From positions 88,758 to 152,757 of the forward strand of contig CAKPEZ010000002.1 of assembly GCA_934149465.1 (NCBI GenBank): a DNA stretch of 64,000 nt. Direction: 5' to 3'. Origin of the DNA: an uncultured Bacilli bacterium. Lineage in GTDB: Bacteria; Bacillota_I; Bacilli_A; RF39; UBA660. The notes below the pieces were generated by a model. That model made no database searches, was not told the origin of the DNA, and worked only from the letters and a program-made list of their open reading frames with translations. Positions 2,909 through 22,503 of this stretch are shown here, one piece after another. Position 1 is the stretch's first letter; each line of letters starts with the position of its first letter. The position numbers and the translations under genes are program-made.

Positions 2909-4528
2909 TTAAGATCTTTCTTTAATCATTAATGGAACACTTAGAAGAATAGGGAATATTAAGATAAATGGGAACATATATCTTAAAGAAAAAGATAGAG
3001 GAGTTGCACACATCATGCTAATCCACATAGCAAGATATGGAATATACAAAAGAGTATATTCTTTATTTTTATAACTACTTAATAGCATACTTATTATAAT
3101 AAGCCAAATACAAGTTCCAGGATAAAGATACTGAGAATATTTGTAATAGAAATTTTCTAATTTTTCCTCTATGCTGTTAGGAAATAAATCTTTTTGAAAT
3201 AAGTTATATCTTTCTTTTTGCGTTTCTACGTAGGTGTCAGTAGTATTACTAAAAACATCATAGTACATGTTATGACCATCAGTAATAAGGCCAACGCTCC
3301 AAAAACTTTCGGTTTGATAAGCATAACTTTCAATATAAATATCTAAATTTTTAAGAAGAATTGTTCCCCAGTTTTTTAAGAAACGCAATTTATTAATTTG
3401 TAAATATTCTCTATCAAAATCTTTATGCCATTTAATAGGATCAACAGTACCATGATTATAAGATTTTTTTATTTCTTCAAAACTTAGAAGATGACTTACT
3501 AGATCTTTTTCTCCTCTACTTAAGTTACCATTATTTGCAACCACTGCAGATATTTGTTGTAATGGAATAGCCATACTTTCTTGAAAATAGTGCTTTACGT
3601 TATATCTTTTTTGGATAATTTTATTTGCTGATGTGTTAATAATGAAAGGAACTAATAATAAGATAAGCATTTTTTTATTAAAATATTTCTTGCAACGAAT
3701 TATTAAGATAATACTTGTTATTATATAGATCACGAAAGCATTAGATCTAGTTAAGAACATAGTAGTATTAAGAATGATGTAGTAAATAATGAACTTCTTG
3801 TTACTTAGATATTCTCCTTTAGTTTCAATTATTTTCGTAAGAAGTAAGAATAAATAAATTAAAAGACTAGCAAATAATACATCTTTTACTGCAAATATTG
3901 AGTATGATGCGTATATAGGAGTAAATGCGTATATTCCAAGAATTATACTAAGAAGAATAGGAGATACTTTTCTTTTAGCAAGAAATGCTAGAGTGTAAGA
4001 TAAAGTAAAGATAATAAATAGCATTTGCAGAAAAGTAAATATTCCAAAGCCAATAATTCCATTTCCTAAGATATTATATCCTATCTTAATAGTAAAGATA
4101 TTTAGTAAATAGCTATATCCTATTGGATGCTGGGAAGAAGCTGCTCCTGGAGAAGTTAGTTGATAGAACGTGTCATAGTCTGCTCCACCAGGGAAAAACG
4201 TTAGATAAGAGATTATCCAAACAACAAATAGAGTAATAAAAGAGATTAAGAAGATCTTTTTTATTTGTTTATCTTGGTAATTAGAAGTATTAAGATTTAT
4301 TTTTTCTATTCTTTTTACTAAGAATTTTAAAATTAGAAAAGATAAGCTTCCTATTAAGATAAACTTGATAAATAAGAAGAAGTAATTAATATTACTAAGA
4401 AATCTAATAGTATTAGGATTATTCTTCATTAGTATTTCTATATTAATAGCAATACTTATTAATATAGATGTAATAATAATATTAAGATTATTTTTTATTT
4501 TTTCCTTCATAATTATACCTCGTTTCAT
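2909..4528 (-). CDS. Polytopic membrane protein, putative GT-C-fold glycosyltransferase (GtrC/YfhO-like partner of the GtrA/GtrB pair)
   Basis: 539 aa with more than 10 hydrophobic helices and an extracytoplasmic soluble domain. Position is convergent with the gtrA/gtrB-like genes. No specific motif recognised. Confidence 0.4.
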   Translation of the reverse strand: MKRGIIMKEKIKNNLNIIITSILISIAINIEILMKNNPNTIRFLSNINYFFLFIKFILIGSLSFLILKFLVKRIEKINLNTSNYQDKQIKKIFLISFITLFVVWIISYLTFFPGGADYDTFYQLTSPGAASSQHPIGYSYLLNIFTIKIGYNILGNGIIGFGIFTFLQMLFIIFTLSYTLAFLAKRKVSPILLSIILGIYAFTPIYASYSIFAVKDVLFASLLIYLFLLLTKIIETKGEYLSNKKFIIYYIILNTTMFLTRSNAFVIYIITSIILIIRCKKYFNKKMLILLLVPFIINTSANKIIQKRYNVKHYFQESMAIPLQQISAVVANNGNLSRGEKDLVSHLLSFEEIKKSYNHGTVDPIKWHKDFDREYLQINKLRFLKNWGTILLKNLDIYIESYAYQTESFWSVGLITDGHNMYYDVFSNTTDTYVETQKERYNLFQKDLFPNSIEEKLENFYYKYSQYLYPGTCIWLIIISMLLSSYKNKEYTLLYIPYLAMWISMMCATPLSFSLRYMFPFILIFPILLSVPLMIKERS

Positions 4529-9468: not shown

Positions 9469-11697
9469 ATGATAAAGTTAAAAAATGTCTCAAAATTTTA
9501 TTATAGTAAAGGCGTAGTAGCAAGCGGTTTTTCTAAAGTTAATTTAGAATTTAAAATAGGGGAATTTGTCGCTATTACAGGAGAAAGCGGAAGTGGTAAG
9601 TCAACTCTTTTAAATGTTATTAGTGGTCTTGATACTTATGAAGAAGGAGAAATGTATATAAATGGTGAAGAAACAAGCCATTATACTGAAAAGGACTTTG
9701 AAGATTATAGACGTAAGTATATAGGAAATATATTTCAAAATTTTAACTTAGTAAATAGCTATACTGTTTATCAAAATATTGAATTAGTTCTTCTTTTAAA
9801 TGGAAAAAAGAAAAAAGAAATAAAAAATGATGTGCTAGATCTTATTAGAAAAGTTGATTTATATCGTTTTCGTAATACTAAAGTATCTAAATTATCAGGA
9901 GGACAAAAACAAAGAGTAGCAATTGCAAGAGCACTTGCTAAAGATACTCCTATTATAATAGCAGATGAACCAACAGGAAACTTAGATAGTAAATCAGCAT
10001 CTAGCATAATAAAGTTACTAAGTGAAATTGCTAAAGATAAACTAGTAATTATTGTAACTCATAACTACGAACAAGTAGAACCATATGTAACAAGAAAAAT
10101 AAAAATGCATGATGGAAGTGTTTTAGAAGATAAAGTAATTAGAAAAGTAAATACTAAAGAAGAAATAAAAGATAATCTAACTTATCATAATATTACTTTT
10201 TTAAATAAGATAAGATTAGGAATAAGAAATGCTTTTAATATAGTACCTAAGTTTTTATTAGTACTTTTAGTATATCTTTTTGTAACAGTTTCTCTTATTT
10301 CTGAGTATGCTTCTTTTAAACATGATGAATATTTAGCATCTAAAAGTGGGTATAATAATATTTTTCAAGAATTAAGTGATAAAAGAATAATCATTAAAAA
10401 GAAAGATCAAACTCCATTTACTAATGAAGAATATCAAGATATTAAAAAATTAGCTAATGTAAAAAGCGTAATAGAAAATGATTTATTATTAGATACTAGT
10501 TTTTATCTTAGTGATAATGAAAATTTATGGCTTAATAGTCAGTTTTTAGATCTTGAACTTTATCATGAAGGTGATTTAGATTTAGGAAGAATGCCAGAAA
10601 GCGATAATGAAATAATTATTAAAGGAAGCAAAGATGATTATTATATTGGAGATAATGGGAAAGATATCTTAGATAAAGAAGTATATCTTCAAAATAATTA
10701 TACTGGGGAATTAAATAAAGATCTTCCTTTAAAAATAGTTGGAATTAAATATGAAGAAAACGCTAATTATTATTCAATTCAAACAGCATATGCTAATAAA
10801 AAGATAATGACCAAGATATCTTTTCAAAATAACGAACAATATAGTAAGATGAAAGTCTTATTTGAAGATAAGTATTATACTTCTAGTTATAATAATCCAT
10901 ATTTTAAGATAATAAAAAATAATAATGTTCCTTCTGGAAGTGTATATGTATCTGAAGATTTAAATTATTCTTGTCCTAAAGAAAAATGCTTAGGAGAACC
11001 ATTGAAAATAGAAGTATCTAACTTATATTATTATGATTCAGCTTATTTAACAGTAAAAAACATTTATAATAATAAAAATATTAAATCTTTACTTGGAATA
11101 GATGATTATGATAATGTAAATGGAGCAATCTTTATAAGTGAGGAAGATTATAATAAACTATTTAATAAAGATAACTATCAAAGTAGTGTCTTTGTATCAA
11201 ATGTAAATGATATAGATAAGACAGCCACTTCTTTAGAAGAGATGGGATATAAAACATTAAAAATAAAAGATACTCTTGTTAGTGATGGAACAACACAGAT
11301 GATTAGAATATTAAAAACAGTAGTAATTGTCATCTTAGTAATAACTTTATTCTTTATTTCATATTTCGTAATTAGAATAATCTTAAAATCTAGAAATGTT
11401 TACTTTTCAATTATTAGGATGCTTGGAGCGACTAAAAAAATTTCTAAGCAATTATTGGTAATAGAATTATTTACTGTCTATAACATAGCATATTTTTCTT
11501 TTATGATTTTTCTTCTTTTAGGAAAATTTAATATAATAAATGTTAACTTTGTCTCAACTATATTAACTTATTTAAAGTTTAATGACTATGTACTATTATA
11601 CTTAATCTTACTTGGTATGTCTTATTTAATTAGTCAAAAATTTGCTAAAAAGTTATTTAAAAATAGTGCTACATCAACTTTGAAAGAGGAGGTATAA
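9469..11697 (+). CDS. Fused ABC transporter ATPase + FtsX-type permease (MacB-like)
   Basis: Walker A GESGSGKST, signature LSGGQKQR, Walker B IIIADEPTGNLD, H-loop VTHN. C-terminal half has one TM, a large extracytoplasmic domain, then a 3-TM FtsX domain. Confidence 0.8.
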   Translation: MIKLKNVSKFYYSKGVVASGFSKVNLEFKIGEFVAITGESGSGKSTLLNVISGLDTYEEGEMYINGEETSHYTEKDFEDYRRKYIGNIFQNFNLVNSYTVYQNIELVLLLNGKKKKEIKNDVLDLIRKVDLYRFRNTKVSKLSGGQKQRVAIARALAKDTPIIIADEPTGNLDSKSASSIIKLLSEIAKDKLVIIVTHNYEQVEPYVTRKIKMHDGSVLEDKVIRKVNTKEEIKDNLTYHNITFLNKIRLGIRNAFNIVPKFLLVLLVYLFVTVSLISEYASFKHDEYLASKSGYNNIFQELSDKRIIIKKKDQTPFTNEEYQDIKKLANVKSVIENDLLLDTSFYLSDNENLWLNSQFLDLELYHEGDLDLGRMPESDNEIIIKGSKDDYYIGDNGKDILDKEVYLQNNYTGELNKDLPLKIVGIKYEENANYYSIQTAYANKKIMTKISFQNNEQYSKMKVLFEDKYYTSSYNNPYFKIIKNNNVPSGSVYVSEDLNYSCPKEKCLGEPLKIEVSNLYYYDSAYLTVKNIYNNKNIKSLLGIDDYDNVNGAIFISEEDYNKLFNKDNYQSSVFVSNVNDIDKTATSLEEMGYKTLKIKDTLVSDGTTQMIRILKTVVIVILVITLFFISYFVIRIILKSRNVYFSIIRMLGATKKISKQLLVIELFTVYNIAYFSFMIFLLLGKFNIINVNFVSTILTYLKFNDYVLLYLILLGMSYLISQKFAKKLFKNSATSTLKEEV

Positions 11698-11699
11698 AA

Positions 11700-14153
11700 A
11701 TGATAGAACTACGAAATGTAAATAAATATTTTAATAAAGGTAGAAAAAACGCTATTCATGTAATTAATAATACTTCTTTAACTTTAGAAAATAATGGATT
11801 AGTTGCACTATTAGGAAATTCTGGTTCAGGAAAAACAACTCTTTTAAATGCAATTGGTGGCTTAGATAACGTTCAAAGTGGAAGTATTTATATAGATGGT
11901 CAAAAATTAAATTCTAAGTTAGTATATAAAACAGATAAAATTCGTAATTTAAATATAGGTTATATTTTTCAAGATTATAAATTAATAGATAATCTAAGTG
12001 TATATGATAATGTTGCACTTGTTTTAACAATGATTGGCATTAAAAATAAGGATGAAATAAATAAAAGAGTATCTTATGTCCTTGATAAAGTAGGTATGCT
12101 AAGATACAAAAAAAGACCAGCTGGAATGTTATCTGGTGGTGAAAGGCAAAGAGTAGGTATAGCAAGAGCACTTGTAAAAGATCCAAATATCATTCTAGCA
12201 GATGAACCAACAGGTAATCTAGATAGTAAGAATTCTTTAGAAATTATGAAAATAATTAAAGCTATTTCTAAAGAAAGACTAGTAATATTAGTAACTCATG
12301 AACAAGCTTTAGCAAAATTCTATGCTTCTAGAATTATTGAAATAAAAGATGGAACTATTACTAATGATTATCTAAATGAACACGCAGATACTCTTGATTA
12401 TGAAATAGATAATTGTTTCTATTTAAAAGATTTTTCTTCTAAAGAAAATCTTTCAAATAAAGATTATAATATAAATATTTATTCAGAAGTTAAAGAAAAG
12501 ATTAACTTAGATATAGTTTTAAAAAATGGAAATATTTATATAAAAAGTAAAAATAAAGAGAAAATAGAAGTAATAGATGATAATTCTAATATCGAATTTA
12601 TTGATGATCACTACCGAAAAATTAATAAAGAAGATATTTTGAATTATGATTTTGATTTAAAGAAAGTAATTAATTCTAATGAGAAAAAAAGATATTCTTC
12701 TATCTTTAATCCACTTACTTTAATTATAAATGGTTTTAAAAAAGTATTTGCATTTTCTTTTTTAAAGAAAATCTTATTAGGAGGATTCTTCTTATCTGGA
12801 ATATTTATTATGTATGCTGTTAGTAGCATCTTTGCTTCACTAAATGTTAAAGATGAAGATTTTGTAAAAATAAATAGAAATTATTTAACAATAGTTACTA
12901 ATAATATTAAAGTAGAAGATTTTCTTGGATATGAAAAGAAAGATAATATTAAATACTTAATACCAGGATCATCTATTGTTAATTTAAAAGTAAAATATGA
13001 TGATTACTATCAAACAAGTAAAGTACTAGATAATATAAAAGCATCATTATCAGATATCTCAATGATAAAAGAAGAAGAATTAATATATGGAAGAATGCCA
13101 GAAAATAATCATGAAATTGTTCTTGATGAATTAAGTATAAAAAAGACTTATGAAAAAAACAATGCCAAAATGGCTGGACTTACTAAAGTATCAGACATGC
13201 TAGATAGACTAATCTATATAGATCATATGGAACCTTTTAAAATAGTTGGAATAGTAAGATTAAATAGTCCATCTGTCTATGTAGAAAGAGGTGAGTTTAC
13301 TAATATTATTGCTAATAGCCCTTCTTCTTCTGAGATAGATGATGGTTTCTTACTAGAAGAAGCAAGAAGCGATTATTATAATACTACTTCTATAGTTGAT
13401 TATGATTTATATAAAGAAGTAATTTCTTTAAAAGAAGGAAGAGCACCTCAAAATGATTATGAAGTAATAGTAAATATTGATAATAAATATGATATGCCCC
13501 TTAACAAAGAAATATCTTTAACTGTAAATGATCAAAAACTAAAAGTAGTAGGATACTATACTAGTAGTGAGAACTATAATTACTATTTAGTTAATAATAA
13601 TACAATAAAATATCTAAATATAAGAAATGCTTCTAATATTACAGTTTATACTGATAATAAAGACGCTACTATTAATGAGTTTAGAAATCTTAACTTAAAT
13701 ATTCGAGATAGCTATGAACAAAGCAAAAGTGAATATTTAGAAGCTAATAAAGAAAATGTTCGTAATACTTTGATTGTATCTGGAATAATTTTGCTTATTT
13801 CATTAGTAGAAATATTCTTAATGATTAGATCTTCGTTCTTATCTCGAATTAAAGAAATTGGAATTTATAGGGCAATAGGCGTTAAGAAAAGTGATATATA
13901 TAAAATGTTTTATGGAGAAATATTTGCAATTACAACTTTAGCATCATTACCAGGACTTATCTTTATGGCATATATCCTAAGCGTTATTTCTTCAATAAAA
14001 TTTTTATCAAGAATGTTCCTTATTAATCCTGGTATTATAATTATTTCTATAATCTTTATTTATTTGTTTAACTTAATTGTTGGGCTAATACCAGTATTTA
14101 CAACTATTAGAAAAACACCTGCGCAAATATTAGCACGTCATGATTTAGATTAG
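11700..14153 (+). CDS. Second fused ABC ATPase + FtsX permease (MacB-like), translationally coupled to the first
   Basis: GNSGSGKTT, LSGGERQR, ILADEPTGNLD, VTHE. C-terminal FtsX-like TM region. Starts 3 nt after the upstream stop. Confidence 0.8.
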   Translation: MIELRNVNKYFNKGRKNAIHVINNTSLTLENNGLVALLGNSGSGKTTLLNAIGGLDNVQSGSIYIDGQKLNSKLVYKTDKIRNLNIGYIFQDYKLIDNLSVYDNVALVLTMIGIKNKDEINKRVSYVLDKVGMLRYKKRPAGMLSGGERQRVGIARALVKDPNIILADEPTGNLDSKNSLEIMKIIKAISKERLVILVTHEQALAKFYASRIIEIKDGTITNDYLNEHADTLDYEIDNCFYLKDFSSKENLSNKDYNINIYSEVKEKINLDIVLKNGNIYIKSKNKEKIEVIDDNSNIEFIDDHYRKINKEDILNYDFDLKKVINSNEKKRYSSIFNPLTLIINGFKKVFAFSFLKKILLGGFFLSGIFIMYAVSSIFASLNVKDEDFVKINRNYLTIVTNNIKVEDFLGYEKKDNIKYLIPGSSIVNLKVKYDDYYQTSKVLDNIKASLSDISMIKEEELIYGRMPENNHEIVLDELSIKKTYEKNNAKMAGLTKVSDMLDRLIYIDHMEPFKIVGIVRLNSPSVYVERGEFTNIIANSPSSSEIDDGFLLEEARSDYYNTTSIVDYDLYKEVISLKEGRAPQNDYEVIVNIDNKYDMPLNKEISLTVNDQKLKVVGYYTSSENYNYYLVNNNTIKYLNIRNASNITVYTDNKDATINEFRNLNLNIRDSYEQSKSEYLEANKENVRNTLIVSGIILLISLVEIFLMIRSSFLSRIKEIGIYRAIGVKKSDIYKMFYGEIFAITTLASLPGLIFMAYILSVISSIKFLSRMFLINPGIIIISIIFIYLFNLIVGLIPVFTTIRKTPAQILARHDLD

Positions 14154-14255: not shown

Positions 14256-16034
14256 ATGAAACTAACAGGAAAGCCATCAATTGATAAGCCATGGCTACAA
14301 TATTATCCAGAAGAATCTATTAACGAAGAGATTCCATATGAAAATATCTATACTGCACTAGTAAGAGAAAATAAAAATTTTAAAACTATTACAGCACTTA
14401 ATTATTTTGGAAGAAAAATAACTTATGAGGAAATGTTTAAAAATATTGATGATGCATCTAGAGCATTAATTGCGTTTGGAGTAAAAAAGGGAGATGTAGT
14501 AACTATTATTTCTCCAACGTTACCAGAAACATCTTATATATTTTTAGCACTTGCTAAAATTGGAGCAATTTCTAATATGGTTGATCCAAGGACAAGTCCT
14601 GAGGGAATAGAAGAATATATAAAAGAAGCAGAATCTAAATTAATATTTATTATTGATAGTTATGCTTATAAATTAAAAAATTTAAAAAATAAAGCTGAAA
14701 TTCAAGATATTATTACTTTTTCACCAAGTGATTCATTACCATTTGGTTTAAAAATGGGCTATGAATTAAAAACATTTCTTGAAAAGAAAAAAGGAGATAC
14801 ACCTTTAATGGAAGATGTTATTCCTTGGAAAAAATTTATTTCTAAGAAAGATGATATTAATATAGATTATCAATTTGAAGAAGTAGATGCTTCACTACCA
14901 GCAGTTATTGAACATACGGGAGGTACTACAGGAACACCTAAAGGAGTATTATTATCTCATTATAATCTTCTTTCAACTGCCTATCAATGTATCTATGCTG
15001 GATTTGACTTTCAAAGAAAGCAAACTTGGCTTAATATAATGCCTTTATTTATTGCTTATGGAGCAGGAAATGGTTTTTTACTTCCATTATTATGTGGAAT
15101 GGAAGTAATCTTAATACCAGCATTTGATCCAAATAAATTTGCAAATCTATTAAATAAATATAAACCTAATCATATGATAGGGGTACCATCACATTATGGA
15201 CATATTATAAAAAGTCCACTTTTAGCTAAAGCAGATTTAAGTTATGTAATAGCGCCTACTGTTGGTGGAGATGGAATGGATAAAAAACTTGAAATAGAAG
15301 TAAATGACTTTTTAGAAAAACATAACTGTCCATATAAGATTGTAAAAGGCTATGGAATGACTGAAGTAAATGCTGCAGTAGCGGCTTGCAATTCTAACGA
15401 ATCTAATACTTTAGGTAGCGTTGGTATTCCCTTTCCTCAAACAACTATTTCAATCTTTGCTCCTGGGACAACTAAAGAGTTAGGATATAACGAAGAAGGA
15501 GAAGTATGTATTACTGGGCCAAATACAATGCTTGGTTATTGGAAAAATCAAAAAGCTACAGATGATATAATTTGGCAACACGAAGATGGAAAAAAATGGG
15601 TACATTCTGGAGATTTAGGTTATATAAACGAAAACGGTCAACTATTTATAATGGGACGTATTAAGAGAATGATTGTTCGTCATGATGGATTTAAGATATT
15701 CCCACCTAAAATTGAAGAAATAATAAGTGAAATACCAGCAATATCTTCTTGCCAAGTAGTTGGATTTAAAGATTTAGCATATGCTCAAGGTGAATTACCA
15801 ATGGTTCATGTTATCTTGAAAGAAGAATACCGTGGTATGGAAGAAGAAGTAAAAAGCTTAATAATGAGGATTTGTCATGAAAAACTTCAAGAATATGCTA
15901 TTCCATATGATGTAGTATTTGAAGAGAAATTCCCTTTAACTCTTCTTGGTAAAATAGATTTTAAGAAATTATCAGATGAAGATAATGAAAGAATGGCTAA
16001 AGCAGCACCTAAGAAGTTAACAAAAACGAAATAA
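14256..16034 (+). CDS. AMP-dependent synthetase / acyl-CoA ligase (FadD-like)
   Basis: TGGTTGTPKGV AMP-binding core motif, YGMTE, GDLGY. 592 aa. Confidence 0.8.
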   Translation: MKLTGKPSIDKPWLQYYPEESINEEIPYENIYTALVRENKNFKTITALNYFGRKITYEEMFKNIDDASRALIAFGVKKGDVVTIISPTLPETSYIFLALAKIGAISNMVDPRTSPEGIEEYIKEAESKLIFIIDSYAYKLKNLKNKAEIQDIITFSPSDSLPFGLKMGYELKTFLEKKKGDTPLMEDVIPWKKFISKKDDINIDYQFEEVDASLPAVIEHTGGTTGTPKGVLLSHYNLLSTAYQCIYAGFDFQRKQTWLNIMPLFIAYGAGNGFLLPLLCGMEVILIPAFDPNKFANLLNKYKPNHMIGVPSHYGHIIKSPLLAKADLSYVIAPTVGGDGMDKKLEIEVNDFLEKHNCPYKIVKGYGMTEVNAAVAACNSNESNTLGSVGIPFPQTTISIFAPGTTKELGYNEEGEVCITGPNTMLGYWKNQKATDDIIWQHEDGKKWVHSGDLGYINENGQLFIMGRIKRMIVRHDGFKIFPPKIEEIISEIPAISSCQVVGFKDLAYAQGELPMVHVILKEEYRGMEEEVKSLIMRICHEKLQEYAIPYDVVFEEKFPLTLLGKIDFKKLSDEDNERMAKAAPKKLTKTK

Positions 16035-16042
16035 GAATACGA

Positions 16043-16067
16043 AAAACGACAAAAGTCGTTTTTTTTA
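16043..16067 (+). terminator. Rho-independent terminator
   Basis: AAACGAC-AAAA-GTCGTTT followed by T8. Confidence 0.6.
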
Positions 16068-16130
16068 AGTTTAGTATCGCTAAAAAGACAAGCCTATGAT
16101 ATAATAAAATATATAATAGGAGGCGGTTAT

Positions 16131-17960
16131 ATGCAAATAGGAGTTACAGTAATTTGTTGTAGCTTATTATATAGTATTATGGTAGGAATAGTATATTTCT
16201 TAAAACCTAAAGTAAATAATACTGAAAATAAAATTTATAGTTTCTTAATGAAAATAAATATCTTTGGACTTTTCTTAGAACTTGGTTGTTGTTTTTTCGT
16301 TTATAACAAAGATATATCTTCATTCTATTCAACAATGAATATTTTCATAAATAAAGCATTTTTAATTTATTTATTGTTATGGGAATTTACCTTTACATTT
16401 TATACATTCTATATTTCATTTAGTAGAAACGAAAAATTTAAACAACTATATAAGAATAATAAAGATAAAATTCTTCTTGGAATAGGAATAGCTTATTTCT
16501 TAGTTTTACTCTTAGTAGTAGGACTCCCATTATATTACTGTAATGAAGGAGGATATGTTTATTCTTATGGACCTGCTACTGATATATTATTTATAGTAGG
16601 AGGAATATCTATCTTAGTAGATAATTTCTGTGTATTTAAAAATTTTAAAAAAGTAGCAACTAAGAAATACTATCCATTATTTATTTTAATTTTATTAATG
16701 ATTTTAGTTTTTGTTATTAGAGAGATAAACCCTGGATTAATAGTAATCAATTCAGTATTTGCATTTGTTACAGTACTTATGTACTTTACTATTGAGAATC
16801 CTGATTTACAATTAGTTGATGAACTTATTAGAAATAGAGAAATAGTAGAGAAATCAATTGAAGATAAATCAACATTTTTATTTAAGATGACTGAAGAAGT
16901 TAGAAATCCTCTTAAGAAGATTATTGATAATATAGATTCTTATAATATTACTGATGATCCTAAAGATAAGGAATTATATATTGATAATGTCTTAGAAAAT
17001 GCGAATAATTTAACTTTTATAGTTAATAATATCTTAGATATTAGTAATATGGATATCAATAATATTAGAATTACTAATAGTATTTATAATGCTTATACTT
17101 TCTTTGAAGATATAAGAAAGAAAACACTTCCTGAAACTAAGAAGAAAAATTTAGAATTTCGCTATGAAGTAAGTAATAATTTACCTAAATTTCTTTATGG
17201 AGATAACGTTAAATTAAAACAAGCTATAATGTCAATTATCTTAAATGCAGTAAAACATACTACTACAGGATTCGTTGATGTTGATGTTAATACAATTATT
17301 CGTTATGATATCTGTAGATTAATTATCTCAGTAAAAGATTCTGGATGTGGAATGAGTCTTGAAAAAATAAATAATATCTTAAATCAAAAAGGAGAACTTA
17401 CTAAAGGAGATTTAGCTAAGCTTAATAAAGTTGATGTTGATTTAACCGTAGCGCTTAAAATAATTAAAATATTAAATGGTAATGTTCATATAAAAAGTAA
17501 ACTTGGGGAAGGTACTGAATTTACAATAGTACTTGATCAAAAAATAGATTTACCTAAAAATAATATTTTAGATATTAAAAAATATGATTATGCAATTGGT
17601 AAGAAGATATTACTAGTAGATGATAAATTAGATGAAATAAGAAAAATAGAAGATTTACTTACTACTTCTTCTAAAGATGTTATTAATTTAGCCATGTTAG
17701 GATCAGAATGTATTGAAAAGATTAAAGCTGGTGAAAAATATGATTTAATTATTATCAATGATGAATTAAGACCGGTAAATGCTCTTCCTACTTTGCAAAA
17801 GTTAAAAGAAATAAAGAGATTTAATACTCCAGTAGTAGTGCTTTTAGATAAGAATAAAGAGTTTATTAAAAGACATTATTTAGAAGATGGTTTTGATGAT
17901 TATATTTTAAGAAGTAATTTAGAAGAAGAAATAAAAAGAATAATTGATAAATATTATTAA
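16131..17960 (+). CDS. Membrane hybrid sensor-kinase homolog with degenerate phospho-sites (Glu replaces the H-box His) and a C-terminal receiver-like domain
   Basis: 6-7 N-terminal TM helices. DHp H-box reads MTEEVRNPL instead of SHELRTPL. N box NAVKHT, G1 DSGCGM and G2 GEGTEF are intact. C-terminal LLVDD...IIINDELRP receiver-like domain lacks the conserved Thr and Lys. Confidence 0.65.
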   Translation: MQIGVTVICCSLLYSIMVGIVYFLKPKVNNTENKIYSFLMKINIFGLFLELGCCFFVYNKDISSFYSTMNIFINKAFLIYLLLWEFTFTFYTFYISFSRNEKFKQLYKNNKDKILLGIGIAYFLVLLLVVGLPLYYCNEGGYVYSYGPATDILFIVGGISILVDNFCVFKNFKKVATKKYYPLFILILLMILVFVIREINPGLIVINSVFAFVTVLMYFTIENPDLQLVDELIRNREIVEKSIEDKSTFLFKMTEEVRNPLKKIIDNIDSYNITDDPKDKELYIDNVLENANNLTFIVNNILDISNMDINNIRITNSIYNAYTFFEDIRKKTLPETKKKNLEFRYEVSNNLPKFLYGDNVKLKQAIMSIILNAVKHTTTGFVDVDVNTIIRYDICRLIISVKDSGCGMSLEKINNILNQKGELTKGDLAKLNKVDVDLTVALKIIKILNGNVHIKSKLGEGTEFTIVLDQKIDLPKNNILDIKKYDYAIGKKILLVDDKLDEIRKIEDLLTTSSKDVINLAMLGSECIEKIKAGEKYDLIIINDELRPVNALPTLQKLKEIKRFNTPVVVLLDKNKEFIKRHYLEDGFDDYILRSNLEEEIKRIIDKYY

Positions 17961-17963
17961 AAA

Positions 17964-17997
17964 AAGATGTTCCTTAAAAAAAGAAACATCTTTTTTA
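17964..17997. terminator. Bidirectional terminator between the kinase homolog and the convergent tetR gene
   Basis: AAGATGTT-N13-AACATCTT with T-runs on both sides. Confidence 0.5.
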
Positions 17998-18594
17998 TTT
18001 TAATAAAGATTTAATCGCATCAAATAAGTAGGGCTTATATTCATTAATTGGAAGTGGTTCTTTTTTTACTATTGAAGTAAAACAAGTAGAACTAACTAAT
18101 TCTACGATTATAAAAAAAGTTACTTCTGGATTTTTTAATTTAATTTTACTTTTTTTTAAGCCATCAATAAAATGATTATATAATCCTAAACTTTCACTTT
18201 CCATCAAATTAGAAAGATTCTTACTATAAATTCCTAAAGACATATTCTTGCCAATTAATTTTAAAAGAAGCGGTTTAGTAGCAAGTTCATCAATTATATA
18301 ATTAATTACAAAATTCATTTGCTTTTCAAAATCAGTAATATTTTCTTTTTTTAAATGAATAATCGCATCATTAAATAATTGATGTGATTTATTTATAATA
18401 ATGTGGTTCTGTAAATCATATTTATCTTTAAAATAAAGATAAAATGTTCCTTTAGCAATCTTTGCTTCATCGACGATATCCTGTATTGAAGTATCTTTAA
18501 TATCTTTTTTACCAAGTAGGGTATAACCAGCATCTAATAATTTTCTCTTTTTTTCTAGTTTACCTTCTTCTACTTTTGATAGCTCTTTATCCAT
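17995..18594 (-). CDS. TetR/AcrR-family transcriptional regulator
   Basis: N-terminal HTH TSIQDIVDEAKIAKGTFYLYFKDKYDL. 199 aa. Divergent from an MMPL transporter gene. Confidence 0.8.
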   Translation of the reverse strand: MDKELSKVEEGKLEKKRKLLDAGYTLLGKKDIKDTSIQDIVDEAKIAKGTFYLYFKDKYDLQNHIIINKSHQLFNDAIIHLKKENITDFEKQMNFVINYIIDELATKPLLLKLIGKNMSLGIYSKNLSNLMESESLGLYNHFIDGLKKSKIKLKNPEVTFFIIVELVSSTCFTSIVKKEPLPINEYKPYLFDAIKSLLK

Positions 18595-18737: not shown

Positions 18738-20810
18738 ATGAAAAAAATAAGTGAATTTATTTGTAAAAAGAAATATCTTATTCTAATATTAACTATCTTA
18801 TTAACAGTTATTTCTTTAGTTGGAATACATGCAACTAAGATAAACTATGATATTTTAGTATATTTACCAGAAGATATTGAAACTATGAAAGGTCAAAAGA
18901 TATTAACTGAGGACTTTGAGATGGGAGCGTTTTCTATTACTGTAGTAGAGAATATGCCTTCTAAAGATCTTTTAAAATTAGAAGATCAAATTAGAAACAT
19001 AGATGGCGTTTTGATGGTAGAAAGTGCATCTGATTTAGTTGGTACTACTATTCCTCTTGAAATGCTACCAAGTGAGATAGTATCAAAAGTTCATAAAGAT
19101 AATACCGACTTATTACTTATAACTTTTAAAGATGGAACTTCTTCAGAAACAACAACTAATGCTGTTTCAAAGATTAGAGAAATTACTTCATCTAATGTTA
19201 AAGTAGGCGGTATGAGTGCGATGGTACTTGATACAAGAGAATTATCTGATCAAGAAATAACTATTTATATTTTGATCGCAGTAGGACTATGTGCAATTAT
19301 TTTGATGATATCCTTAGATTCTTATTTTGTACCAGTATTATTACTTGGTAATATTGGAATTGCCATCTTATTTAATATGGGAAGTAATGTCTTTTTAGGA
19401 GAAATATCTTATATTACTAAGGCAATAAGTGCAGTACTTCAGCTTGGAGTAACTACCGACTTTTCTATCTTCTTATATCATCGTTATGAAGAATTAAAGA
19501 AAGAATCTAAGAATAGAGAAGATGCTATGAGTAAGGCAATAATGGATACATTTACTTCGGTAATTGGAAGTTCATTTACTACTATTGCTGGATTCTTAGC
19601 ACTTTGTGCGATGAATTTAACTTTAGGAAAAGATATTGGTTTAGTAATGGCTAAAGGAGTATTATGTGGAGTTATTTGCGTTCTTACCGTTTTTCCTGCT
19701 TTACTATTAGTATTTGATAATATTGTAGAGAAGACTTCACATAAAATAATCCTTCCTAAATTTGAAGGATTAAAAGACTTTATAATTAAGAACTACAAAG
19801 TAATATTTATAATCTTTATTATTTTGATATTACCTGCTTACTTAGGAAATAAACATACAGAAAGTTATTATAACTTAGATAAAAGTCTTCCTGATACATT
19901 AGATAGTAGCGTTGCTAATAAGATATTAAAAGAAGATTTTGGAATAGTTTCTCCAGAGATAATCTTAATAGATAAAGATTTAAGTTCTTCTAAAATAAGT
20001 GCTATGTGTGATGAGATAATTGATGTAGAAGGAATAGACTTTGTATTAAATATAGATAAATTAAATGAATACGGAATTACTAAGAATATGCTTAGTGATG
20101 ATCTTTTAAAAAAGGTAGAAAGTGATAAATATCAAATGATTTTAATAAACTCTAGTTATGATATTGCAACTGATGAATTAAATAATCAAGTAACTACTGT
20201 TAATGAAATTATTAAGAAATATGATTCAAATGCTATTTTAGCAGGAGAAGGTCCTCTTATGAAAGATTTAGTTGAAATTAGTAATCAGGACTTTATTAAT
20301 GTTAATTATAGCTCTATAATTATTATCTTTATAATTATGCTTATTATATTAAAATCACTATCATTACCAGTTATCTTGGTAAGTACTGTAGAATTTGCAA
20401 TTATGCTTAATATGGCTATTCCATATTATATGGGAGTAAAACTTCCATTTATAGCATCCATTGTAATTGGAACAATTCAGCTTGGAGCAACAATAGACTA
20501 TGCTATTTTAATGACTACTAAATACCTAGAAGCAAGAAAGAAGATGGATAAAAAATCTTCAGTTAAGTATGCTTTAGATGGATCAGTTTCATCTATTATA
20601 GTAAGTGCTTTATGTTTCTTTGGAGCAACTTTTGGAGTAGGTATTTATTCTAAACTAGAAATGATTAGCTCATTATGCATCCTTATCGCAAGAGGAGCAA
20701 TTATTAGTATGATAGTAGTTATATTTGTCTTACCAGCATTACTTATAATATTTGATAAATTAATTTGTAAGACAACACTTGGAATGAAAGGAAGGAAAAA
20801 ATATGAATAA
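18738..20810 (+). CDS. MMPL/RND-superfamily membrane transporter
   Basis: 690 aa, two 6-TM bundles each preceded by a large extracytoplasmic loop. Divergent TetR regulator. Confidence 0.75.
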   Translation: MKKISEFICKKKYLILILTILLTVISLVGIHATKINYDILVYLPEDIETMKGQKILTEDFEMGAFSITVVENMPSKDLLKLEDQIRNIDGVLMVESASDLVGTTIPLEMLPSEIVSKVHKDNTDLLLITFKDGTSSETTTNAVSKIREITSSNVKVGGMSAMVLDTRELSDQEITIYILIAVGLCAIILMISLDSYFVPVLLLGNIGIAILFNMGSNVFLGEISYITKAISAVLQLGVTTDFSIFLYHRYEELKKESKNREDAMSKAIMDTFTSVIGSSFTTIAGFLALCAMNLTLGKDIGLVMAKGVLCGVICVLTVFPALLLVFDNIVEKTSHKIILPKFEGLKDFIIKNYKVIFIIFIILILPAYLGNKHTESYYNLDKSLPDTLDSSVANKILKEDFGIVSPEIILIDKDLSSSKISAMCDEIIDVEGIDFVLNIDKLNEYGITKNMLSDDLLKKVESDKYQMILINSSYDIATDELNNQVTTVNEIIKKYDSNAILAGEGPLMKDLVEISNQDFINVNYSSIIIIFIIMLIILKSLSLPVILVSTVEFAIMLNMAIPYYMGVKLPFIASIVIGTIQLGATIDYAILMTTKYLEARKKMDKKSSVKYALDGSVSSIIVSALCFFGATFGVGIYSKLEMISSLCILIARGAIISMIVVIFVLPALLIIFDKLICKTTLGMKGRKKYE

Positions 20811-22503
20811 AAAATTTACTAAAGTAGTAAGTGCTACTTTAATTATTAGTATGTTATTTACTAATGTAATGCCAGTATATGCTTTAACTAAAGATGAAAC
20901 TATCTATAGTAAATTAAATACAAATGGTACTGTAAAAAGTACTCTAGTAAATGAACATCTAACAAGAAGTGATAATGAAGAAATGGAAGATGTTACTATC
21001 TTAAAAGATATTTTAAATATTAATGGAGATGAAACTTATCAAGAAAAAGATGGTAAAATAGTTTGGAAAACTAATGAAAAAGATCTATTTTATCAAGGAA
21101 CTACTGATAAAGCTTTACCTATTAGCGCAAGTATTACTTATAAATTGGATGGAGAAGAAATTTCTTTAAATAAATTACTTGGTCAAAAAGGACACGTTGA
21201 AATTATTTTAAATTATCAAAATAATCTTGTTAATGAAACTTACGTTGGTAATAAAAAAGAAACTTTATATACTCCATTTGTAGTAACAATGGGATTAATC
21301 CTTAATAATAAAGAAAATAAAAATATTAGTATTTCTAATGGTAAAATAGTTAACCTAGGAAATAAGAATATCTTAGTTGGTATTGCTACTCCAGGAATGT
21401 ATGATAATTTAAAAATAAAAGAATTTAAGAATTTAGATAGCATTACTATTAGTTATGATACAACCAATTTTAGCTTACCATCTATCTATAATGTTGCTAC
21501 TAATAAAATAGTAGAAGATGATGATTTAGAAATATTTAATAAATTAGATAATTTATATAGTAGTTATCAATTATTATCTTCTAAAGTAGATGAATTAGAA
21601 GAAGGCGCTAATACTCTTTATGAAGGGATGGAATCTTTAAATGATGGTATCTTATCTTTAGATAGTGGATTAACTTCTCTTTATGATGGAATAACTTTAA
21701 TTCAAAGTAAATTAGAAGATTCTCTTGCTAAGTATGCTGATATGTCTATTTCTGATGAAATGATTTCTTCTGTCAAAGAAGAAGCTACTAAAGAAGCAGT
21801 TTTAGCAATTGAAAGTAAAAAAGAAGATTTATTAAAGCAAGCTAAAAATAAAGTAGATGCTAAATTTACTTCTTATTATAAAGATATAATTGGTAATCAA
21901 GCAGTAAGTAATATTGAGAAAATGTATGGACCTTTAGATGATACTACTAAAGCTCTTATATATAATACAGCAGTTAATACATCATATACTGTAGCATTAG
22001 AAACAGCTAAAGAAACCACTTATGAAACTGCTATTCAAATAGCAAAAATACTTGCACCTAATATAGCAGAAAACATTTTAAAAGAAACAACAACAACTAT
22101 TATGAAAGAAACAACATCTTCTTTAAAAGAACTTACAGAAGCAATAAATTACCTAGAAACTGGTGTAACTAAATTACAAGATGGTTCTAGTAAATTAGTA
22201 TTAGGAAGTTCTAATATATTAGAAGGTAACAAATCTCTAAGTGAAGGAATTCATACATTTAATGAACAAGGAATAAAAAAACTTAATAGTTATTTTGATT
22301 ATGAACTTATAAATAAAGTAAAAAAATTATCTATTCTTTCTAAAGAATATCAGACATTAGATTCTAAGGATGATAGTGCTAATGGTAAGAGTAAACTTAT
22401 TATGGTAATAGATAGTGTAGAAAAGAAAAGTACTCCGCAAAAAGAAAATACTAAGAAAGTAAAAACATCTTTTTGGGATAGAATAGTAAACTTATTTAAA
22501 TAA
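20803..22503 (+). CDS. Secreted coiled-coil protein with YhgE/Pip-like repeat region
   Basis: Signal peptide VMPVYA-LTKDE. Repeated L-x2-G heptad-like motifs LEEGANTLYEGMESLNDGILSLDSGLTSLYDGI typical of the YhgE/Pip soluble domain. Overlaps the MMPL stop by 8 nt. Confidence 0.45.
   Translation: MNKKFTKVVSATLIISMLFTNVMPVYALTKDETIYSKLNTNGTVKSTLVNEHLTRSDNEEMEDVTILKDILNINGDETYQEKDGKIVWKTNEKDLFYQGTTDKALPISASITYKLDGEEISLNKLLGQKGHVEIILNYQNNLVNETYVGNKKETLYTPFVVTMGLILNNKENKNISISNGKIVNLGNKNILVGIATPGMYDNLKIKEFKNLDSITISYDTTNFSLPSIYNVATNKIVEDDDLEIFNKLDNLYSSYQLLSSKVDELEEGANTLYEGMESLNDGILSLDSGLTSLYDGITLIQSKLEDSLAKYADMSISDEMISSVKEEATKEAVLAIESKKEDLLKQAKNKVDAKFTSYYKDIIGNQAVSNIEKMYGPLDDTTKALIYNTAVNTSYTVALETAKETTYETAIQIAKILAPNIAENILKETTTTIMKETTSSLKELTEAINYLETGVTKLQDGSSKLVLGSSNILEGNKSLSEGIHTFNEQGIKKLNSYFDYELINKVKKLSILSKEYQTLDSKDDSANGKSKLIMVIDSVEKKSTPQKENTKKVKTSFWDRIVNLFK

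Follow-up and report, generated by a model that had tools for sequence, protein, structure and literature searches.

The stretch of DNA analyzed here (the window; 64,000 nucleotides of contig CAKPEZ010000002.1, from an uncultured RF39 bacterium of the Bacilli) carries a gene for a 609-residue homolog of hybrid histidine kinases, in which a predicted seven-transmembrane (7TM) sensor is joined to DHp, CA and receiver (REC) domains that have lost their phosphotransfer residues. The loss had a single origin, its descendants have been held under purifying selection, the Hpt-REC gene that accompanies intact relatives has disappeared, and the linkage to an acyl-activating ligase or an acyltransferase has persisted. 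The protein belongs to the pseudo-histidine kinase and pseudo-receiver category (Collins and Childers, as cited in PMC12632262), in that its domains are recognizable, its phosphotransfer residues are gone and it has been evolutionarily maintained; it represents a new family within this known category. We favor the interpretation, with a probability of roughly 0.55, that a dismantled phosphorelay has been kept in RF39-like Bacilli as a membrane sensor or scaffold that acts without phosphorylation and is coupled to acyl-lipid metabolism.

Three Pfam families were recognized in the 609-residue protein: HATPase_c at residues 357-470 (49.9 bits, above the cut-off), Response_reg at residues 493-605 (33.3 bits against a cut-off of 30.2) and, under its cut-off of 26.9 bits, HisKA at residues 246-308 (22 bits). 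NCBIfam gave only far-sub-threshold matches, to hybrid kinases such as ArcB, TorS, BarA and LuxQ. The DHp and CA folds are supported by an AlphaFold2 (AF2) model and by Foldseek matches to ShkA, GacS, HK853, RetS and DivL (E down to 1e-13). The (beta-alpha)5 fold of the receiver is supported by the Response_reg match and by the alternating strands and helices of the AF2 model at residues 492-608.

The positions of the H-box and of the N, G1 and G2 boxes were set by phmmer alignment to the solved kinases GacS (7z8n) and RetS (6dk7/6dk8). The segment msHEiRtPl of GacS and RetS pairs with mtEEvRnPl, which places Glu255 at the phospho-acceptor position. An earlier note on this DNA, made by a model from the sequence alone, had already reported the replacement of His by Glu and argued that the gaa codon is not a single-base error; both statements hold, gaa being two base changes from a His codon (CAY). 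The same note regarded the N, G1 and G2 boxes as intact. Asn372 of the N box and the G1 box are indeed there, but the F-box Phe and every G2 glycine are gone: the alignment to 7z8n finds KVDVDL where GTGLGL is expected, and the earlier reader probably took the G3 box (GEGTEF) for G2. Because G2 is not intact, ATP binding by the CA domain appears doubtful and catalysis very unlikely. The protein has the DHp and CA fold of a functional HisKA kinase and lacks both the acceptor His and the full set of N, G1, F and G2 boxes.

Receiver residues were placed by ungapped alignment to the receivers of PhoP, MicA and ArlR. Asp497 and Asp498 of the quintet D-D-D-T/S-K are kept, and Asn543, Leu572 and Arg594 stand in the other three places. 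The Leu and Arg had been correctly identified in the earlier note, which also described the acidic pocket as kept. That description applies to Asp497 and Asp498 but not to the phospho-acceptor position, since this is Asn543, and the Asp that was counted, Asp544, is the +1 residue after it. Autophosphorylation on the canonical His is impossible, with no substitute His to take its place, and the receiver is unable to take phosphate where the canonical Asp would be. The His is missing from about 0.9% of HisKA domains in general and the Asp from about 2.0% of receivers (PMC12632262); the joint loss of the two in this protein is not a chance feature.

The missing His is a property of a large family. 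Among 5.8 billion proteins searched, more than 100 full-length homologs at 38-99% identity came up, and at least 553 relatives were detected when one genome per species was scanned, almost all of them in metagenome-assembled genomes (MAGs) from guts that are labeled uncultured Bacilli, Tenericutes or Mollicutes. The identical protein sequence is present on six independent contigs, and the 90% cluster to which it belongs has 33 members; the 15 of these that could be read are all 609 residues long and carry E255, N543, L572 and R594. When residues occurring more than once are tallied, the H-box column of 116 full-length homologs contains Gln 76 times, Gly 10, Lys 10, Ala 8, Glu 4, Asn 4, Ser 2 and His 0. 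More than 70 species-level relatives lack the acceptor His, mostly with Gln instead. Comparison of orthologs at this residue had been proposed in the earlier note, where a His would have indicated strain-specific decay; none was found in the 116 homologs (38-99% identity) or in 15 strain variants, and such decay is ruled out. An alternative phospho-acceptor His within DHp is ruled out as well, as none is conserved: DHp is entirely without His in 53 of 71 degenerate members, and in none of its columns do more than 4 of the 71 have one. The earlier proposal of a pseudo-kinase fused to a pseudo-receiver that does not act through His-Asp phosphotransfer is therefore well founded. G2 is without glycine throughout the 116 homologs, and the receiver Thr position is Leu or Ile in most of them; Asp543 is present in 95 and Lys594 in 81. 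Residues N372, D403, G405 and G407 are about 90-98% conserved in the His-less clade.

Not all relatives have lost the His. In an independent sample, the best 150 matches at the 50% identity level, 102 representatives were full-length, of which 78 lack the His and 23 have it. A few mosaic members keep the H-box His with G2 lost (P0313, P0396, P0414, P0327 and P0306 among the 50% representatives, and L082), and these may be intermediates or reversions. The receiver of P0313 is degenerate too, and its contig shows a ligase-like C-terminal fragment upstream and no visible Hpt-REC gene downstream; the contigs of the apparent intermediates were too short for informative gene context.

Fifteen of 80 genomic loci hold a version of the protein with every catalytic signature intact. 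The H-box of these canonical members reads FLS(N/S)MSHEIRTPLN, G2 reads IEGTGLGLAITKKL (GTGLGL), and the receiver contains VDDN, LILMDDMM, ALTA and SKPI; one of them, L028, scores 65.5 bits for HisKA, 94.9 for HATPase_c and 80.4 for REC. Directly downstream of the canonical kinases lies a gene of about 260 codons for an Hpt domain and a receiver, without any DNA-binding domain. Fusions of the Hpt to the kinase occur in L072 and L044, and an Hpt-REC homolog is downstream or fused in 13 of the 15 canonical loci, the contigs of the other two stopping just past the kinase gene. By its domain content, the canonical kinase with its Hpt-REC partner makes up a complete H1-D1-H2-D2 phosphorelay. The Hpt-REC gene is absent beside all 71 degenerate members and from the 64-kb window, and the partner response regulator that the earlier note suggested looking for was not found locally.

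The canonical members (for example L028, L067-L072 and L076, from uncultured gut Bacilli) resemble the window protein in the 7TM sensor with its MYFTIENPD junction, in domain order and in length, with about 34-36% identity over the full length, and also in the upstream ligase and the optional PlsC-type acyltransferase or HAD-like gene. They differ in possessing the His, the F and G2 boxes, the full D-D-D-T-K receiver and the downstream Hpt-REC gene, none of which the window protein has. In a neighbor-joining (NJ) tree rooted on a single distant paralog, the His-less members formed one clade in 100 of 100 bootstraps and the canonical members were paraphyletic. Branch depth after the split was 1.30 for the degenerate members versus 0.47 for the canonical ones, about 2.8 times longer. 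Because the His-less clade is monophyletic and its branches are longer, the tree points to one ancient loss followed by faster evolution.

The degenerate proteins have nevertheless remained under constraint. Pairwise dN/dS values, calculated by the Nei-Gojobori method, were 0.06-0.15 overall for His-less pairs and did not exceed 0.24 in any of the TM, DHp, CA and REC domains; the canonical pair L070/L056 gave 0.10, indistinguishable from the His-less pairs. Conservation of the TM domain is alike in the two groups (0.48 in degenerate versus 0.54 in canonical members), whereas that of the cytoplasmic domains is 0.52-0.55 in degenerate versus 0.70-0.79 in canonical members. Catalytic constraint has thus been relaxed, with the folds and many surface positions retained. 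These values bear on the idea that the gene is a non-functional relic, decaying like a pseudogene, or a sequencing or assembly artifact. Such a relic would account for the degradation of all catalytic signatures, visible also in the profile scores relative to L028 (HisKA 22 versus 65 bits, HATPase_c 50 versus 95, REC 33 versus 80), and for the lengthened branches. It is at odds with the low dN/dS, with an open reading frame (ORF) that is intact at 609 codons in all 15 cluster members read and full-length in more than 100 species-level relatives, and with invariant motifs outside the catalytic sites, and the recovery of the exact sequence from six contigs speaks against an artifact. We reject the relic reading and give it practically no weight. 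A separate observation concerns the tandem pseudo-kinases of L010 (2103-3920 and 6001-7836), whose DHp, CA and REC domains are identical (dN = dS = 0) and whose 7TM domains have strongly diverged (dN 0.72, dS 1.18). This pattern may reflect diversification of the sensor by domain swap or gene conversion, or else a MAG assembly artifact.

The 6-7 membrane helices suggested in the earlier note correspond to seven helices in the AF2 model, at residues 2-24, 31-58, 64-97, 101-131, 148-170, 178-199 and 205-220 (pLDDT ~80; pTM 0.79 for the domain modeled by itself). On the outer side of the membrane the model has just one element of any size, a predicted 12-residue extracytoplasmic beta-hairpin at residues 135-146 (YxYSYGP), and an unbroken helix runs from the membrane into DHp. 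A topology with the N-terminus outside and the C-terminus inside would fit, because positively charged residues lie in loops 25-30, 98-112 and 171-177. The invariant residues of the family are in the sensor and not in the catalytic sites: K25, N33, Y91, P133, G147, P182, P201 and I221-E-N-P-D225. The last of these is invariant across 76 homologs, and the junction motif does not differ between the canonical and degenerate clades; at least 90 of the 102 representatives carry MYFTIENPD or a variant with one residue changed. The window protein has the seven-helix N-terminal domain closing with the (M/I)(Y/F)xTIENPD junction, one of the two features by which we define the 7TM-ENPD hybrid kinase family linked to acyl-activating enzymes; the other is a ligase or acyltransferase gene directly upstream on the same strand. 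No model in Pfam or NCBIfam covers the 7TM domain, and a profile built for it matched 2,488 representatives (50% identity level, E <= 1e-3), always at the N-terminus and mostly in proteins of about 600 residues. The sensor is a GPCR-like, undescribed bacterial domain.

The gene upstream of the pseudo-kinase encodes an AMP-forming ligase of the ANL superfamily, with a 241-bit Pfam match to AMP-binding and a further match to AMP-binding_C. Its best NCBIfam match, to the long-chain-fatty-acid--CoA ligase PRK05605, was 298 bits against a cut-off of 766, and the partner is an ANL enzyme that falls below all equivalog cut-offs for FadD or acyl-ACP synthetase. Of 72 paired ligases, 67-72 conserve the catalytic motifs A3, A5, A7, A8 and A10. 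In 71 of the 80 loci a ligase homolog adjoins the kinase homolog on the same strand; in 66 of these it directly precedes the kinase gene, at a distance of up to 300 bp (median about 61 bp). Of the nine exceptions, four lack upstream DNA, and four of the other five (L034, L038, L039 and L064) have a PF01553 PlsC-type acyltransferase directly upstream in place of the ligase. A PF01553 acyltransferase with the H(X)4D motif (CGNHLHVWDQ), together with a HAD/NT5C-like domain, is also found between or fused to the ligase and kinase in L068, L072 and L076 (canonical) and in L022 (degenerate), which brings the loci with such an acyltransferase to eight. In sum, a ligase, an acyltransferase or both are upstream in 75 of the 76 loci that have upstream DNA, as is also the case in the window. 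The ligase-kinase pair has been duplicated in tandem as a unit in L008, L010, L032 and L043. The earlier note placed the gene at the end of a patch of ABC-FtsX and acyl-CoA ligase genes; among the window genes only the upstream ligase recurs beside the family, and linkage to the ABC-FtsX, TetR or MMPL genes was rejected, none of them being conserved next to it.

The window ligase is 51% identical to the ligase of the canonical locus L028 and 52-55% identical to those of the nearest pseudo-kinases; the kinase identities for the same loci are 36% and 49-56%, respectively. Ligase and kinase distance matrices are correlated (r = 0.47, Mantel 0/999). A terminator-like hairpin is present in only nine of 57 comparable gaps between the two genes (48 are without one), and 14 further pairs are less than 25 bp apart or overlap. 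Because most gaps are hairpin-free and these pairs are so close, co-transcription looks to be the norm in the family, with the window, where a hairpin that may be an attenuator or partial terminator stands in the gap, in the minority.

Some loci show further peculiarities of the ligase and its surroundings. Ligases of 913-987 residues occur at L017:3183-5930, L018:2113-4908, L020:1240-3981 and L023:2121-5084; their long N-terminal extensions were considered as an informative fusion and rejected, since they are a second, degenerate AMP-binding N-domain placed before an intact enzyme. A membrane protein of about 441 residues, absent from the window, is encoded about 30 bp downstream of the kinase homolog in 17 of the 80 loci (for example L004:9731-11286). 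In L039, a MAG labeled 'Mollicutes', a spo0A gene (3230-4015; Response_reg and Spo0A_C) is separated by about 170 bp from the downstream gene for a PF01553 acyltransferase, which is followed in turn by a degenerate kinase homolog; this may be a coincidence or a link to a sporulation phosphorelay.

We propose that the ancestor was a bona fide 7TM hybrid kinase that, with the adjacent Hpt-REC protein, would have formed an H1-D1-H2-D2 phosphorelay next to an AMP-forming ligase of the fatty-acid type. Among RF39-like gut Bacilli with reduced genomes, one ancient lineage had the acceptor His replaced, usually by Gln and here by Glu, and lost the F and G2 boxes of the ATP lid; its receivers lost the Thr and often further residues of the active site (here Asp has become Asn, and Lys has become Arg), and the Hpt-REC gene vanished. 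Strong purifying selection has retained the 7TM sensor, the ENPD junction to the signaling helix, the DHp, CA and REC folds, and the place beside the ligase. The 7TM bundle would still detect a signal, presumably from the membrane or its lipids, and would relay it by conformation and protein-protein contact with no phosphate. The likeliest target would be the neighboring acyl-activating enzyme, coupled to the sensor physically or functionally and either recruited to the membrane or allosterically regulated; uptake or activation of exogenous fatty acids could in this way be coupled to membrane state. The proposal presumes that no other kinase partner is encoded elsewhere in the genome. The scaffold role put forward in the earlier note appears plausible in this setting. 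The ancestral relay is likewise without an adjacent DNA-binding output, which fits a post-translational target without being evidence for one. RF39 genomes are reported to lack fatty-acid biosynthesis and presumably depend on exogenous fatty acids (PMC6784871), and Ca. Coprosoma (L060, L061), of the order RF39, is among the carriers. A more specific form of the proposal, in which the GPCR-like seven-helix lipid sensor binds the ligase and gates it or anchors it at the membrane as a receptor-enzyme pair, with fatty-acid activation in fatty-acid-auxotrophic gut Bacilli governed by conformation alone, is advanced more tentatively.

Several points weigh against coupling to the ligase by a pure scaffold. 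Contact between the two proteins is putative, and the adjacency of the ligase could be a leftover of ancestral co-regulation; the substrate of the ligase is not assignable from scores that all lie below equivalog cut-offs. The mirror-tree correlation is modest and in part reflects species phylogeny, the nearest neighbors of paralogous pairs are not always congruent, and in the window itself a terminator-like hairpin parts the ligase from the pseudo-kinase. The phylogeny is NJ only and its root is the one distant paralog, and the window exposes 64 kb of a genome in which a partner kinase or regulator could lie elsewhere. The conservation of N372, D403, G405 and G407 is unexplained by a pure scaffold, and residual adenine-nucleotide binding may lie behind it.

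If a partner does lie elsewhere, the protein could be a modulator of the RetS/GacS or RocA/CovS kind that heterodimerizes with a real kinase through its DHp or TM helices, the adjacency of the ligase being merely historical. RetS (E 1.9e-15) and GacS are among the best matches to solved structures, known multi-TM or hybrid pseudo-kinases act in this way (RocA: PMC7028121), and the DHp helices have been maintained, including the conserved E256, R/K258 and P260. Other two-component genes exist in these organisms, as OmpR-type regulators are reported in RF39 and RFN20 genomes (PMC7301438). However, no gene for a kinase, receiver, Hpt protein or paralog was found elsewhere in the 64-kb window, and about 700 kb of flanking DNA from the 80 loci contained, outside the canonical cassettes, just one spo0A and one extra kinase. 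Canonical and degenerate copies never occurred together in one genome among the matches listed (80 loci), and a modulator would leave unexplained both the linkage to ligase or acyltransferase and the duplication of the pair as a unit. We regard this alternative as rather unlikely. Less probable still is a partial enzymatic role, in which the E-x-x-N motif and the N and G1 boxes would let the protein act as phosphatase or phospho-sink on a regulator that receives its phosphate elsewhere, or as a sensor that binds ATP or ADP. The motif that follows the His position, E256-V-R-N259, reads as a match to the HisKA phosphatase motif E/DxxT/N, and HisKA phosphatase activity reportedly does not strictly require the His (PMC12632262); the four nearly invariant residues of the N and G1 boxes and the receiver residues D543 and K594 kept by most members could also be explained in this way. 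Position 259 is not conserved, however (Glu 32, Lys 23, Asn 20, Thr 10, Ala 10 and others), and for this reason phosphatase activity cannot be the common function of the family. In the receiver of the protein itself Asn takes the phospho-Asp position, no regulator that could be a substrate lies nearby, and the loss of G2 and the F box removes elements of the ATP lid. Phosphorylation-independent coupling to fatty-acid activation remains the interpretation that we prefer, and comparative genomics makes it a well-motivated proposal.

Table 1. Coordinates of the pseudo-kinase gene, its domains and residues, and the adjoining elements in the window.
Feature	Position	Strand	Basis and remarks
Pseudo-hybrid histidine kinase gene (7TM sensor, DHp, CA, REC)	16131..17960	+	ATG start, 609 aa; ORF list, domain matches, AF2
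Seven-helix membrane domain, aa 1-220	16131..16790	+	AF2
Junction motif M-Y-F-T-I-E-N-P-D, aa 217-225, from TM7/cytoplasm boundary into DHp helix	16779..16805	+	Homolog conservation
DHp-like helical hairpin, aa 224-305	16800..17045	+	AF2 helices 224-273 and 277-305
Codon gaa (E255) at phospho-acceptor His position, H-box K-M-T-E-E-V-R-N-P-L	16893..16895	+	Alignment and sequence
CA (HATPase_c-like) domain, aa 317-472	17079..17546	+	Pfam, alignments, AF2, Foldseek
N-box N372	17244-17246	+	Alignment; retained
G1 box D403xGxG407 (D403-S-G405-C-G407)	17337-17351	+	Alignment; retained
Degenerate G2 box K433-V-D-V-D-L438	17427..17444	+	Alignment to 7z8n
Pseudo-receiver domain, aa 492-608	17604..17954	+	Pfam, alignments, AF2
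N543 at phospho-Asp position of receiver	17757-17759	+	Receiver alignments
L572 at receiver Thr position	17844-17846	+	Receiver alignments
R594 at receiver Lys position	17910-17912	+	Receiver alignments
AMP-forming (ANL-superfamily, FadD-like) ligase gene, 592 aa, 96 bp upstream of pseudo-kinase	14256..16034	+	Pfam, locus comparison
Terminator-like hairpin and T-run between ligase and pseudo-kinase	16041..16064	+	10-pair stem, 3 G-C pairs
Possible own promoter, TGATATAAT extended -10	16097-16105	+	Read by eye; missed by consensus scan, low weight
Ribosome-binding site AGGAGG, 7 nt before pseudo-kinase ATG	16118-16123	+	Read from sequence
Possible hairpin (AAGATGTT...AACATCTT) and T-run past stop codon, common to convergent TetR gene	17964..17997	.	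Read by eye, low weight

The G+C content of the window is 25%, and the hairpin past the stop codon has too few G-C pairs for a terminator scan to call. The gene convergent with the pseudo-kinase encodes a TetR-family protein (17995..18594, minus strand). A TetR gene is also found 3' of the kinase homolog in L022 (L022:7863-8432), there on the same strand; relatedness of the two TetR proteins was not detected at E < 1e-4. Farther downstream, an ORF of 566 codons with no Pfam match (20803..22503, plus strand) overlaps the end of an MMPL-family gene (18738..20810) by 8 nt, which suggests translational coupling. Upstream of the ligase, two large proteins are encoded back to back (9469..11697 and 11700..14153, plus strand), each with an N-terminal ABC ATPase and a long C-terminal part, the second alone matching FtsX.

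Pseudo-histidine kinases are recognized but rare, and mechanistically they are almost unexplored, with few examples studied (DivL, RetS, RocA and PsmA); no literature specific to the 7TM-ENPD kinase family was found. The novelty lies in a 7TM sensor not described before, in how large and old the His-less clade is, in the near-obligate pairing with an acyl-activating enzyme, and in the existence of an intact sister system, from which the dismantling of an entire phosphorelay, including the loss of a gene, can be read. The sister group permits a residue-by-residue and gene-by-gene view of what is lost and what is retained once phosphotransfer is abandoned. The family also comes with a concrete candidate output, an intact acyl-activating enzyme that is at times accompanied by a phospholipid-type acyltransferase. 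The module may bear on how prevalent uncultured gut Bacilli with reduced genomes, RF39 included, build their membranes from host or community lipids. Should the receptor-enzyme pair prove true, it would be of a kind not yet described in bacteria, and the sister clades would form a before-and-after series of a two-component pathway rewired into direct allostery.

In lysophospholipid re-acylation systems of the Aas/LplT type, an acyl-ACP synthetase and a PlsC-type acyltransferase work with a membrane partner. The loci of the present family are similar in that genes for an AMP-forming ligase and for an H(X)4D acyltransferase accompany that of a polytopic membrane protein, and a role of this sort would fit the scavenging of exogenous acyl chains. 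They differ in that the membrane partner is a kinase-derived 7TM protein rather than a flippase of the major facilitator superfamily; the NCBIfam models NF005959, NF006386 and NF005291 gave weak matches, far below the family cut-offs.

RetS of Pseudomonas aeruginosa and DivL of Caulobacter are kinase homologs that signal by protein-protein contact and not by canonical autophosphorylation, as we propose for the window protein. RetS, though among its best solved-structure matches, keeps the His and has two receivers and a periplasmic sensor. DivL also lacks the His, having Tyr instead (PMC4211667), but it is PAS-based and reads DivK~P; neither RetS nor DivL has a linked acyl-activating enzyme. 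RocA of Streptococcus pyogenes (PMC7028121) is likewise a Firmicute membrane protein with a multi-helix N-terminus (six predicted TM helices), a DHp domain and a degenerate CA domain, and it works without autophosphorylation. It differs in that its DHp His, H246, is present although dispensable, in having no receiver and in binding a real kinase, CovS, whereas the window protein has no His, carries a fused pseudo-receiver and has no partner kinase visible nearby. PsmA of Streptomyces venezuelae (PMC12963549) is a pseudokinase of hybrid histidine kinase architecture with a C-terminal receiver and, like the window protein, has Glu at the His position, a position that varies among orthologs; it is conserved across its whole lineage and its function is independent of a phosphorelay. 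PsmA, a cytoplasmic and polar protein, partners with DivIVA at hyphal tips and has neither conserved ATP-binding motifs nor an E/DxxT/N motif, whereas the window protein has a 7TM sensor, the N and G1 boxes and the linkage to a ligase. The two are alike in the domains that they share, and PsmA is the nearest conceptual match to the protein described here.

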